The notes beneath the pieces are model-generated. The model did no database searches and was not told the DNA's origin. It was given only the letters and a program-made list of their open reading frames with translations. 64,000 nucleotides of DNA from Octopus vulgaris (taxonomy: Eukaryota), in contig OX597815.1 of assembly GCA_951406725.2 (NCBI GenBank), positions 83,452,001-83,516,000 on the forward strand. The letters are read 5' to 3'. Below are positions 1,989 through 38,990 of this stretch, in pieces. A program made the translations under genes and the position numbers. Position 1 is the first letter of the stretch. Each line of letters begins with the position of its first letter.

Positions 1989-2468
1989 TGGTCTTGTCAA
2001 TGATAATAAACGTTTATTAACCTTATCTCTATCTGGTCTTTTTTTTTTGCATAATATTAATAACACTATGTATGTATGTACCTGCTTTGTTAAGCATTCA
2101 ACCAGTCCAATCTTGGATATTTTTGTCCCTCCGGGGTTTATATCTTCACTTGTACCTTCATTATATATATACATATATATATATATATATATATATATAT
2201 ATATATATATATATATATATATATATATATATATATGTACCTTCATATATATATCGATATTTAAATACTTATCTGATCAGGTAGCCTGCATGGGAATAAA
2301 AACTTCCAATCGTAATAATTATTAACAATTATAATTTAGGGTATCAGAGAGATACCAACACGCTGGAAATAGCACTCAAAACATTAGTCGAAAACCACAT
2401 TAAATGTTCATACAGCACCAGGAGAGGAGACAAAGAGACAAAATAAATTAGCAAAAAATTACTGGATA

Positions 2469-2527
2469 ATTCCAGATCCCGGGTTTCTGACTCTGCATAA
2501 GAAATGCCCTGCCTTCATCAGTGGAAT
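2469..2527 (-). ncRNA. Type I hammerhead ribozyme (family A)
   Basis: RC: attcca-CTGATGA-aggcagggcatttcttatgcagagtca-GAAA-cccggg-ATC-tggaat. Stem I is attcca/tggaat. Confidence 0.75.
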
Positions 2528-2721
2528 ATACTCAGAAAGCACATAAATACAAATATATATGCAACATGCGATATACTTACATATACGAACGTATACATAC
2601 ACATATATGCACGTATATGTAAGTATATCGTATGTTGTGTATATATATATATATATATATATATATATATATATATATATATTTATATATATATATTTGT
2701 AGTTATGTGCTTTCTAAGTAT

Positions 2722-2780
2722 ATTCCACTGATGAAGTCAGAGCATTTCTTATGCAGAGGCAGAAATCCGTGATCTGGAAT
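2722..2780 (+). ncRNA. Type I hammerhead ribozyme (family A)
   Basis: attcca-CTGATGA(2728-2734)-agtcagagcatttcttatgcagaggca-GAAA-tccgtg-ATC-tggaat. AUC cleavage triplet, with inner stem II gcat/atgc. Confidence 0.8.
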
Positions 2781-3280
2781 TATCCAGTAATTTTTTATCT
2801 AGTTTATTTTCTCTCTTTGTCTTCTCTCCTGGTACTCTATGAACATTTAATGTGGTTTTAGAGTCAAGATTTGAATGCTATTTCCAGCGTGGTGGTATCT
2901 ATTAGATACCCTAAATTATAATTTAATATATATATATATATTGGTTCGCGAGAGCACCTGTTTTCTCGAAGGCACACCTTGTCGAGAACTGTTCGAAATG
3001 CAGAGTAGAAAAATAACCGACAACTGATGAAGGATCGCTCTTTAAGTTAATTGTCCTGTTTTCTGCTTGTCCCTTTCGTTATTCGCATAAAAAAGTTCGC
3101 ATTCCATACTTTCATTATTCATATTTTATGCTGTTTTTTTAATTTCCTCTTATTTACGTTTTATGACGTCCTGTACACATATATGCATATATATATATAT
3201 ATATATATATATATATATATACATATATGTGTGTGTCTGTGTGTAAATATATACATATATGTATATATATATATATATAT

Positions 3281-3677
3281 TTAAACATATAAGGGATGGC
3301 TATAATATGGCATCCGACTCACTAGAAATTTTGAAATTAAATCGGCAGTTTATATTTACTGCTGAGAAAACCGCGCGAATGCGGTGGATTTTGAAAATTT
3401 ATAGCATATAGACTCGAGGCATGCTCGTTATCGCTTCGTGAATATATGGTAGTCCTTGGCTTTTCTGCTGATGAGTGCAACGCCGGTGGTAAATAACTTT
3501 AATTTAATTTAATTTATTTACGAAAGATTGCCGAAACTATGCATAGTCCAGAAACGAGAGGGTAAACGTTTTTATTTCTCTTTCCATTCCAGAATTACAA
3601 CTATTAGTGGTTTGGAGTTTAGCTGCTCTTTCTAGTGAGTCGGATGTCCTATTATAGCCATCCCTTATATGTTTGAA
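3281..3677. mobile_element. HHR-bearing element (family B) with ~47-bp inverted termini
   Basis: aaacatataagggatggctataatatggcatccgactcactagaaa (3283-3328) is inverted at 3629-3674 and encloses the HHR at 3462-3554. Confidence 0.7.
3462..3554 (+). ncRNA. Apparently intact type I hammerhead ribozyme, GUC site, palindromic stem III
   Basis: tttctg-CTGATGA(3468-3474)-extended stem II (gcaa/ttgc; gtaaataa/ttatttac)-GAAAC(3533-3537)-tatgcata-GTC(3546-3548)-cagaaa. ACTATGCATAGT is a perfect 12-nt palindrome. Confidence 0.88.
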
Positions 3678-35030: not shown

Positions 35031-36179
35031 ACATGGATAGCCACATGCATACACACATACATACTACATCTTACGATTTAAAAAAATAGTGGCAATAGCG
35101 GTTAGCTTTTTTTTTAAAATAGAAGCTGATTACTTTTCACTTACGAACGCTATACATGTTTTTAATAGTTGTAATACGTTTTTTATTTAGATATATCTAG
35201 TGAGTTATTTCTACTATTCTGTCTCCACTAGTTGCAAATGCACGGGTTGATTATTTTGATGCACACATTAGTTGTGTTGTATAGCTGCATACTATAGCTG
35301 TCAGTTGTGTAGTTTTCATGATGACGATGATGAAAATGATGATGGGGAGGAGGAGGGGGAGGAGGAGCAGCAAGAGGGGAGGTGGATGCTGCTGCTGCTG
35401 ATGATGATCGTGAAGAGTTTATACAGAGACATTAGTTTATTTCTTATGATGTAATTCTCTTCAGAATTTAAATGAATTGGCAACTTTCATTTTTAATTCA
35501 AGAACAAAGTCCCACAGAGAATAATTGCTTACGTAAGTTATAGATAGATTAGGTTAGAGTGGCAAAACAAGGGGAAAAGTGAAAGTTGATATTGGTTATT
35601 ACCAAAAAAAAAAAACAAATTTTAAGCTATAGAATATAATGCAAACACATATACGTTGATATCAAAGCTCTTGAATATATGAGTATATATATATGTGTGT
35701 GTACGTGCGTGCGTGCGCGTAGCTGTGTGTGTATGTGTGTGTGGTTAAGTATATATGTGTATATGTGTATACCTGTATATGTATATACATACATGTGTTT
35801 ATAAGCATATGTATATATATATATATATATATATATATATATATATATATATATGTATACGTATAGATATAAGTAAATATGCATAAATGTTTATTTTATT
35901 CCTCATATGTACATAGATATGTAAATATTCGTATATATTGTATTGTTTTATATATAATATATTACAGTGAGTAACGAAATTTTAATTTCTATTTTATTTT
36001 TAGTTTTCATTTATTCATTCATTTATATATTTGTGTCTTTGGTCAGTAACTGTTATTACCTTTTTGTCTTTTTCTCAAAATCGAAGGAAGTGACTACTAT
36101 TCCCTTCAAACTTTGCTTTTGTGAACTGGATATCACTGTTTTGAAAGTAACCCATTTTCTAATACATTTCAGGCAGTTT

Positions 36180-36370
36180 CAGCGCCGAGTTGCTCAAGCA
36201 GATTACGGTTATAGCAAATATTCTGCTCAATACCAAATATTTGCTTGTCACTTAACCATATTGAGCTTATCCGTTCGTGGCTGATGATACGCGCATCTCT
36301 GATTATGGACAGGAGTAGTGGGGAAGTATCATATCCATGTGTTGAGAGGGATTCATTGGGGTTTCAATAA
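36180..36370 (+). mobile_element. Diverged short interspersed repeat fragment
   Basis: SINE-like segment ending gtagtggggaagtatcatatccatgtgttgagagggattc; single copy in this window. Confidence 0.3.
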
Positions 36371-36699
36371 ATGTAGGAAAAGCAAAGTTTGATGGAAATA
36401 TTAGTCATTTTTTAATAATTTTTAGGAGTCAAGAAATCGGAAATAACAGTTGCTACACAAGGACAGAAATCGTGTAATACCGTATTATTGTTATCCCCAT
36501 CATTCTCAGCAGCAGCAACAGTAGTATGAATGTCTTTAGAATCGTCATTACTTTTTATTCCTCAGAGCACTCGATTTAACTTGCTCCGGTAAATTCTGTT
36601 AGAACGGACAGCAATCTGCTGTGAAGATCTCACAAGATCCCCCAGGGTCACTTTCTACGATTTATTAAACTTGGTATCCAGCTGTTAAGTATCATGAAA

Positions 36700-37075
36700 T
36701 ATATTTAACATCCAAGTACCAATCTAAATTTCCTTATTATCCCCAGTAGAGTAGCATTTCGAGCATGATCTATCCTCATATCAATTCGAATATCACCAAG
36801 ATATTTCTCAAATCTGATTTTTATTTGCTCTGATTTCCCCTACAACTACTGTGTTGACAGTTACTCTCATCATTGCCCAGATTCTTAGAAATTTTGACTT
36901 TTTGTAATTTGTATTTTTCCACCTTTTTCAGTTCTTTGTCGCCTACGCGTGAGTCCCCAGTTATAATCTTAGTTTCCATTTTCCTTATATCTAGTACAAC
37001 AATGTCTGGTTTTCGAGCATCTATTTCAGTCACTGTAGATGGTAAAATTTCGCAAAAATTTTATATTCAGAGACG
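36700..37075 (-). mobile_element. R4-clade LINE 3' fragment (REL endonuclease)
   Basis: EIDARKPDIVVLD...GDSRVGDKELKKVEKY; abuts the (TAT)n-(CAT)n-(CAG)n-(TAG)n array at 37085-37283. Confidence 0.75.
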
Positions 37076-38271
37076 CCTTTCCTCATTATTATTATTATTA
37101 TTATTATTATTATTATTATTATTATTATTATTATCATCATCATCATCATCATCATCATCATCATCATCATCATCATCACCATCATCATCATCATCATTAT
37201 TTGCAGCAGCAGCAGCAGTAGTAGCAGCAGCAGCAGCAGTAGTAGTAGTAGTAGTAGTAGTAGTAGTAGTAGTAGTAGTAGTATGTTCCCTTTAAAAAAC
37301 TATAATACCACCACCGACACCGATTCCACCTACGTTTGGCACATTTGGTGCGACCAACTAATTTATATACAAACGTTGTTTGCTGAGCGCTAAAGCACGA
37401 CCAAGAGCAACATGCCACACAAAGAATGACGTGGTCTAAATTTGACACAAAAGAACTGAACACAGCTATTCACACAGTTACTTCAACTCTTAACAGAACC
37501 CTAAATACTAACACAATCCCCTTGTGAAACCAACCAAAACCCCAACACAATAAGTTTCTATCCCCCGATACCTTACTAATAATTAGTTTCCTCTAATCTT
37601 CATCTGTCAGTATTCCTACATATTTACGTCTCCAATCTCCCTACATTATAAACCAATCATTATTTTACATATCTACACCATTGCCAAACTCAATACAATC
37701 CCCGAAAGAGACGAAGTATAGCACAGTCTGATGACGGTGAGAAAACCTGCCACTATCGAATTTTTCATTATAAAAGTTTAATCACTATCTTATCTACTTA
37801 AAATGTGTAGAATGATCCTTCAGTTTAAGTTTAAACTGTTTACATATATACAAATTAGATATAATAAAAGCATTAATATATATGCAAGTGTTTCCCTATG
37901 TATGAGTGTCCTTTATATTTTCGCGCGTGTGTAGAAAAATTTAGTAGTGATTATGTAGGAGATGGTTACACGTGTTTCAGGGACAGTTCCAAAACTTTTA
38001 GTCAAAATATACATTACGAAATAGGCTTTTGCATACCACTTCATCAAAAACTTTTATGACAAAGAGTCATGAATATATTTGAAAGTGGCTTATAAAGAGT
38101 AAATGGCAAACATTCTCTCCATTGTTTATTTAATGTTCTTGCAAGAAAATATGCCATAAAAACACAACAAAAATAGTAAAAGATTAGTAAATGAAAGTTA
38201 CATAAACAGCACACATCTATCTATCTATCTATATATATATATATATATATATATATATATATATATATATA

Positions 38272-38990
38272 TATAATTTAGGGTATCTAAGAGATACCTG
38301 CACGCTGGAAATAGCAGCCAAATCTTGCCTCTAAAACCACATTAAATGTTCATACAGCACCAGGAGAGAAGACAAAAGAACAAAATAAACTAGCAAAACA
38401 ATGACTGGATAATTCCAAATCCTGGATTTCTGACTCTGCATAAGAAATGCTTTGCCTCATCAGTGGAATATACACAGCACATAAATACAAATATATATAT
38501 ATATATATATATATATATATAAAACTACAGATACTTACATATACGACGAACGTATACATACATATATATCCACGTATGCACACGGCCAGTTTAAATTGCC
38601 CGCCTAAAACTCCTCGTGCGATATGGTCAAAGTTATCATCGCAGTAAATATAATAACGAAATAAATATATAAATTTATATAAATAAGGATAAGTTCGTTA
38701 TTTAACTATCGAACTTATCAAGTGGCCACCATAGGAATAAAAACCTTCAAAGGTAATAATAATTATTAAAATTATAAATTAGGGTATCTAAGAGATACAT
38801 TCACGATGGAAATAGCTGCCAAAACTTGACTCTAAAACTTCATTAAATGTGGAGGTATCTCTTAGATATCCTAAATTATAATTTTAATAGTAATTATTAC
38901 CTTTGAATGTTTTTATTCCCATGCTGGCCATTTGATAAGTTCGATATTTAAATAACGATCTTATCCTTATTTATTTAAGTTTATATATAT
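38272..38990. mobile_element. HHR-bearing repeat family A: tandem unit (~500 bp period) plus inverted partial unit
   Basis: ttagggtatctaagagatac at ~38278 and ~38779; inverted segment ~38850-38985. Confidence 0.75.
38412..38469 (-). ncRNA. Type I hammerhead ribozyme (family A), AUU site
   Basis: RC: attcca-CTGATGA-ggcaaagcatttcttatgcagagtca-GAAA-tccagg-ATT-tggaat. Confidence 0.78.

Follow-up and report, generated by a model that had tools for sequence, protein, structure and literature searches.

The 64,000-nucleotide stretch of Octopus vulgaris contig OX597815.1 analyzed here (positions 83,452,001 to 83,516,000; hereafter the window) is made of AT-rich, microsatellite-laden, non-coding animal-like DNA and contains a family of repeats, family A, which we interpret with moderate confidence as a ~500-bp non-autonomous Penelope-like element (PLE). 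It would consist of a terminal repeat plus a tail, be devoid of open reading frames (ORFs) and be moved in trans by a full-size partner. The family has a defined unit, terminal redundancy at two loci, arms arranged head to head, termini that recur among copies and (TA)n tracts at or beside five of its six outer ends; from this anatomy we infer the steps of its mobilization.

The preliminary description of the window had recognized three related loci, with a segment recurring after ~497-500 bp at two of them and an ORF-less unit containing an internal (TA)n tract, and all of these features were borne out. Pairwise identity is 88-90%, between loci as well as between the arms of one locus, and the flanks of the three loci have nothing in common except microsatellites, so that the loci are three independent, old insertions, whose copies would have decayed after insertion (about 10-12% pairwise). 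The recurring segment repeats after 497 bp at locus 2 (21349 and 21846) and after 501 bp at locus 3 (38291 and 38792), and the repeated pieces agree at 56 of 61 and 69 of 78 bases, respectively. With terminal redundancies of 61 and 78 bp, the left arms of these loci thus amount to 1.12 and 1.15 units. No conserved ORF was found in the unit, whose longest ATG-initiated frames (66-69 amino acids) are of low complexity. Loci 2 and 3 agree at 88% over 548 aligned bases without any gap at the point where one unit passes into the next; because their flanks are unrelated, the ORF-less join was already present in the template, and the earlier proposal of copying from a longer-than-unit template is thereby strengthened. 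A BLAST search of the three loci against the window retrieved nothing beyond these loci and one 37-bp fragment. Literature searches yielded no paper on the family as judged from titles and abstract openings, but it may already be catalogued in Repbase, Dfam or supplementary files, which lie beyond the reach of that search.

Positions in the unit are given as phases, +1 being the base that follows the cleavage triplet of the hammerhead ribozyme (HHR) motif described below. The arms and associated features are:

2252 to 2616, minus strand (HHR sense): left arm of locus 1, phase about -159 to +224; its end adjoins a (TA)n tract
2612 to 2928, plus strand: right (inverted) arm of locus 1, phase -127 to about +155; ends in (TA)n
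2640 to 2696, no strand assigned: expanded internal (TA)n tract of locus 1, with a very short counterpart in the left arm
21064 to 21100, plus strand: isolated 37-bp family fragment, phase -119 to -87
21347 to 21904, minus strand: left arm of locus 2, 1.12 units, from phase +69, once round, to +129; period 497 bp
21347 to 21407 and 21844 to 21904: direct repeat of locus 2
21903 to 22130, plus strand: right (inverted) arm of locus 2, phase -126 to -43, then +101 to +258; ends in (TA)n
38272 to 38850, minus strand: left arm of locus 3, 1.15 units, from phase +69, once round, to +146; period 501 bp; ends in (TA)n
38272 to 38349 and 38773 to 38850: direct repeat of locus 3
38849 to 38990, plus strand: right (inverted) arm of locus 3, phase +115 to about +254/+258; no HHR

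All three loci are head-to-head inverted pairs, the HHR-sense 3' ends pointing outward, and the arms are joined at their centers via 2-5 bp of microhomology (5 bp at locus 1). Because the HHR is on the minus strand of the long arms, the inverted piece sits at the 5' end of the RNA-sense unit; the inverted partial unit reported earlier at the end of each locus is present in all three cases, placed head to head. Locus 1, previously taken for a unit starting at another phase, is instead a palindrome of two partial arms with two opposed HHRs, and contains no full unit. The HHR core is missing from the right arms of loci 2 and 3, having been deleted at locus 2 between two 4-bp microhomologies, near 21975, and never included at locus 3. 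Among the six arms, the 5' starts comprise +69 twice and -126/-127 twice, and the 3' ends fall at +146 to +155 twice and at +254 to +258 twice. The cleavage site is the start or the end of none of the arms, and is crossed by four of them. Outer ends lie in or beside TA runs in five of six cases, and owing to these tracts a target-site duplication is undefinable. The phases of the two outer ends are uneven in every locus (+224/+155, +129/+258 and +146/+258), with an offset of about 70-130 nt; the +224 and +258 ends are 34 nt apart. The starts at +69 and -126/-127 coincide with short hairpins, which is only suggestive because such hairpins, with margins, occupy 15-21% of the unit. The earlier idea of variable start points holds only in part, as the termini recur at a few phases. 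For this reason, free circular permutation was rejected. The notion of an HHR-delimited monomer is not supported either, given that the cleavage site bounds none of the arms and that same-strand HHR pairs are absent from all three loci.

A splice-donor-like GTAAGT is present in most arms at phase -120 (21604 to 21609 and equivalents), immediately 5' of the TA tract; candidate acceptors are located ahead of the HHR or at about +82 to +87. Retention of an intron close to the HHR is known from PLEs (Cervera and de la Pena 2014, PMC4209133).

Four HHR cores were identified, at 2521 (minus), 2728 (plus), 21521 (minus) and 38463 (minus), three with the triplet AUC and one with AUU:

2470 to 2526, minus strand: minimal type I hammerhead motif of locus 1, AUC, predicted cut after 2475
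2723 to 2779, plus strand: minimal type I hammerhead motif of locus 1, AUC; its stem II has a G-U/U-G flip not shared by the other copies
21470 to 21526, minus strand: degenerate hammerhead motif of locus 2, AUC, core CCGAUGA, one mismatch in stem I
38413 to 38468, minus strand: hammerhead motif of locus 3, AUU, without the extra A 5' of stem II

The AUC and AUU sites of the preliminary description are confirmed. Stem I is of 5 bp and stem II of 7-8 bp, bulged; an extra base occurs between positions 9 and 10.1 in three of the four cores, and an A between C11.1 and G12 in all four. The stem III strand is palindromic, with self-dimer energies of -3.3 to -13.7 kcal/mol as against 0.0 for the hairpin. 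Over the 14 pairs of the four cores (56 cells), 96% are paired, with a single two-sided change; with only four sequences, covariation is not significant (122 of 500 shuffles). Two of the four cores pass a strict descriptor, which matches nothing else in the window (null mean 0.115; 2 matches were reached in 3 of 200 simulations and exceeded in none). Hammerhead models were absent from the 150 of 243 Rfam matches listed for the window and from two targeted Rfam scans, and unconstrained folds of the four HHR regions are unremarkable (z from -0.9 to +0.8). As judged from its sequence, the motif matches the minimal type of Penelope elements and not the canonical type of retrozymes (Cervera and de la Pena 2014, PMC4209133; Cervera and de la Pena 2020, PMC7229834). 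Minimal HHRs of PLEs combine a short helix I with a long helix II, leave one base unpaired between positions 9 and 10.1, have a palindromic helix III and occur as opposed pairs 100-700 bp apart; family A is like them in each structural feature and in having opposed pairs on opposite strands, and differs by the A between C11.1 and G12 of all four cores, which is not mentioned in the available parts of that study (PMC4209133).

A second, unrelated minimal hammerhead occurs in each arm of a near-perfect palindrome at 460 to 700 (98.8% identity over 168 bp). These two motifs point outward between TA tracts, their cleavage triplet looks mutated in both arms, and this second HHR family (460 to 627) likewise has stem II flanked on either side by the A seen in family A.

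The unit is also predicted to form a long helix, in which segments E (+21 to +66) and C (about +281 to +333) are paired over 32 bp in one copy and 33 bp in the other (6 and 5 G-U pairs; -33.6 and -43.0 kcal/mol):

21409 to 21454, minus strand: segment E, 3' arm of the predicted helix, locus 2
21648 to 21691, minus strand: segment C, 5' arm of the predicted helix, locus 2
38352 to 38397, minus strand: segment E, 3' arm of the predicted helix, locus 3
38586 to 38628, minus strand: segment C, 5' arm of the predicted helix, locus 3

These energies were attained by none of 500 shuffles in either copy, and by one and none, respectively, of 2456 background windows, and the antisense duplexes are weaker (-17.0 and -23.9 kcal/mol). 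In the natural contiguous sequence, the predicted helix encloses the TA tract and the HHR. Three pairs differ between the two copies and all three are still paired, although two sequences cannot prove covariation. Since C pairs with E, segment C appears to be part of the same non-coding RNA module. This conserved, predicted sense-strand helix of 32-33 bp, which would clamp the HHR domain, and the extra A of stem II are the new features of the family.

In public sequencing runs, locus 2 is partly present in 20 of the 24 runs compared (best share 0.33), under six organism labels; these runs were compared as contigs and none is on record as RNA, so that presence says nothing on expression. Contigs of four runs were aligned to 21582 to 21925, of which 21582 to 21758 was skipped as repeats, and segment C is consequently not covered. 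The numbers of contig pieces placed were 1917, 1037, 168 and 36; the summed depth of contigs does not measure copy number, and alignments are broken by indels found only in locus 2. Two of these runs, only presumed to be RNA, were left out as evidence of transcription. An end joined to (TA)n at 21817 (phase about +158) was found in all four runs (33, 20, 3 and 2 contigs), other contigs continuing past it, and this recurring end is also that of the right arm of locus 1. Three opposite-strand joints (+142/+71, +120/+86 and +120/+82) represent additional inversions, whose centers differ from one another and from those of the window; as joints are visible only within the 120 bp covered, their clustering is no evidence of a hot spot. 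In run X17, a 2800-nt contig carries a family segment at 2614 to 2694, with an end near phase +255 and ~2.6 kb of unread sequence upstream, which makes it a candidate autonomous partner. Motif scans for an ORF-carrying contig gave no match in metagenome, prokaryote genome or viral contigs. In runs X6 and X15, 17 and 5 contigs extending beyond 21894 carry a diverged segment E, suggesting a second subfamily.

The insertion anatomy finds its closest parallel in PLEs. In published PLE insertions, a partial tandem is flanked on its 5' side by an inverted, 5'-truncated copy, one end carries a tail of 30-40 bp and the targets are (TA)n (Craig et al. 2021, PMC8557442), and PLE head-to-head inversions show palindromes at the junction (Arkhipova et al. 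2013, PMC3846280). By analogy, the partial tandem, the inverted 5' copy, the uneven ends and the (TA)n targets of family A agree with this geometry, as do its central palindrome or microhomology and the location of the HHR in the terminal repeat; endonuclease-bearing PLEs differ from it in that family A has no reverse transcriptase or endonuclease ORF between its repeats. Non-autonomous PLE derivatives with pseudo-long-terminal-repeats (pLTRs) are known (Craig et al. 2021, PMC8557442). For one PLE studied in vitro, synthesis initiates internally, downstream of the HHR, on uncut RNA, HHR cleavage being dispensable, and AT-rich targets are nicked and extended on both strands (Frangieh et al. 2024, PMC11167929). 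That no arm of family A ends at the cleavage site and four cross it is what would be expected from such an uncut template with internal priming. We propose that a tandem master copy would be transcribed into a longer-than-unit RNA, which would be copied uncut, a partner acting in trans providing both reverse transcriptase and GIY-YIG nuclease. The partner would nick AT-rich DNA, and reverse transcription would begin within the RNA, 130-260 nt downstream of the ribozyme, where a few sites rich in AT and in hairpins would be preferred; each insertion would make a second, inverted arm joined by 2-5 bp of microhomology. Dependence on PLE enzymes, already suggested in the preliminary description, is supported as probable.

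Several observations weigh against this proposal. An autonomous partner could not be linked to the family: Pfam searches of 150 ORFs (149 of 234 filtered ORFs plus one from locus 2) revealed no reverse transcriptase or GIY-YIG ORF between the repeats, and the sole reverse transcriptase match among them is a fragment at 40065 to 40559, outside the family. The ORF-less join is known from only two arms, and both long arms start at +69, which random truncation does not predict. The end classes differ by ~100 nt, more than the 30-40-bp tail of published PLEs (PMC8557442). The ~2.6 kb upstream of the family segment in the 2800-nt contig could be a PLE body, and hence an ORF-bearing copy, or host sequence. 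Finally, the C:E helix suits an uncut precursor and a circle equally.

That last point bears on a true retrozyme cycle without long terminal repeats (LTRs), in which tandem arrays located elsewhere would self-cleave as HHR dimers and the resulting 500-nt monomer, ligated into a circle, would be copied more than once round by a PLE reverse transcriptase. Circles have been proposed as PLE templates (PMC4209133) and shown for animal retrozymes (PMC7229834), the unit size is inside the published range of 51-972 bp (Li et al. 2026, bioRxiv 10.64898/2026.07.22.740005), and two arms are longer than one unit and cross the cleavage site. The circular monomer fold beats shuffles (z of -3.8 and -4.7, values inflated by the AU tract; -2.8 and -5.0 without it, vs -2.8 to +2.2 across 42 background windows), and the predicted C:E helix would close the two ends of the monomer into one domain. 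We nevertheless find this cycle unlikely, because uncut tandem RNA accounts for the same redundancy without it, and the recurring termini, with no free permutation, are not what a circle predicts. Active retrozymes are recognized by two consecutive HHR units (Li et al. 2026), whereas none of the three loci has two HHRs on the same strand and none can thus excise a monomer in cis; moreover, the motif belongs to the minimal type of PLEs and carries an additional A before GAAA, minimal motifs cut poorly in vitro (PMC4209133), and eight of nine predicted Xenopus dimers remained uncut (bioRxiv 10.64898/2026.07.22.740005). Similarly doubtful is a more specific picture, in which the RNA would be a rod-like circle closed by the ribozyme and held by the C:E helix, with the hammerhead and the priming hairpins at opposite ends; a Penelope reverse transcriptase would copy it for more than one round and leave the head-to-head footprint typical of Penelope. 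If true, this would connect animal retrozymes and PLEs physically and directly, through a hammerhead core that is unusual in being flanked by A.

The copies might also be terminal repeats of an ORF-bearing PLE, loci 2 and 3 deriving from one internally deleted or partial-tandem copy, in which case there would be no independent 500-bp family. Segment C is indeed missing from locus 1 and from every right arm, contigs pile up on the short A/B segment, many of them ending near +158, and the unread ~2.6 kb of the 2800-nt contig has the size of a PLE body. This explanation is improbable in our opinion, as the same ORF-less join occurs in two independent insertions with unrelated flanks and without the remainder of a longer element beyond either, no coding remnant is recognizable in segments B or C, and C, by pairing with E, belongs to the same non-coding module. 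As for a foldback or MITE-like (miniature inverted-repeat transposable element) DNA transposon carrying an HHR in its long inverted arms by chance, every locus is a long inverted repeat beside TA dinucleotides and some breakpoints recur; yet inversion centers vary among copies and the predicted helix is strand-specific. With outer ends at different phases in all three loci, there are no matching terminal inverted repeats; a foldback transposon was accordingly rejected, and we consider any origin of this kind very improbable.

Several described groups of elements come close to the non-autonomous PLE that we favor. MRC1-type Chlamys elements (PMC8557442) and the non-autonomous PLE retrozymes of Li et al. 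(bioRxiv 10.64898/2026.07.22.740005) resemble it by their ORF-less, pLTR-like redundancy, a size of 51-972 bp and dispersed near-monomers, but the former mostly lack canonical HHRs; the latter, which are derived from pLTRs and frequently found as monomers, are defined as tandem repeats that contain two or more HHRs, the available parts of that preprint making no mention of inverted arms. Non-LTR retrozymes, known from coral, mussel and axolotl as tandem units of 170-400 nt that have canonical HHRs (Cervera and de la Pena 2020, PMC7229834), share with family A a low-GC, ORF-less, self-paired unit and a type I HHR with a weak stem III. They form tandem arrays with proven circles, whereas family A, known here from DNA alone, consists of 1.1-unit copies with a minimal PLE-type HHR and inverted arms. 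The family works like a PLE-dependent, retrozyme-like element, a likeness that falls short of showing retrozyme identity. The role of PLEs in moving animal retrozymes has so far been argued from co-occurrence and pLTR similarity (PMC7229834; bioRxiv 10.64898/2026.07.22.740005), to which an ORF-less HHR unit with a PLE insertion footprint adds anatomical support. The 500-nt unit would also be a simple substrate on which to compare the action of a PLE enzyme on uncut linear RNA and on a circle, and to address the origin of the inverted arm. The present evidence makes it another old and abundant family within a known class.

Other elements surround the three loci. Close to locus 3, on its right, is a disrupted fragment of a LINE-type reverse transcriptase that includes a PHD-like finger (39824 to 41482, minus strand). 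A separate element with 655-bp inverted arms, 98.3% identical, lies in the TA tract in which locus 2 ends on the right (22137 to 23825) and has no similarity to family A. Its center encodes a frameshifted peptide matching a 77-amino-acid unnamed protein (E-value 2.4e-05). This peptide, which we take to resemble the C-terminus of a PLE GIY-YIG nuclease, a resemblance confirmed by no tool, gave no match in Pfam or word-seeded searches and only scores under 0.8 in Atlas, and three of its four phmmer matches are repetitive proteins. Four more long inverted-repeat elements are located at 16545 to 17624, 32375 to 33344, 47580 to 47900 and 59941 to 60968; the last two hold CUGANGA...GAAA motifs and may be further PLE ends. 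The window also contains a full-length 5S rRNA gene at 30110 to 30228, minus strand (114 bits).

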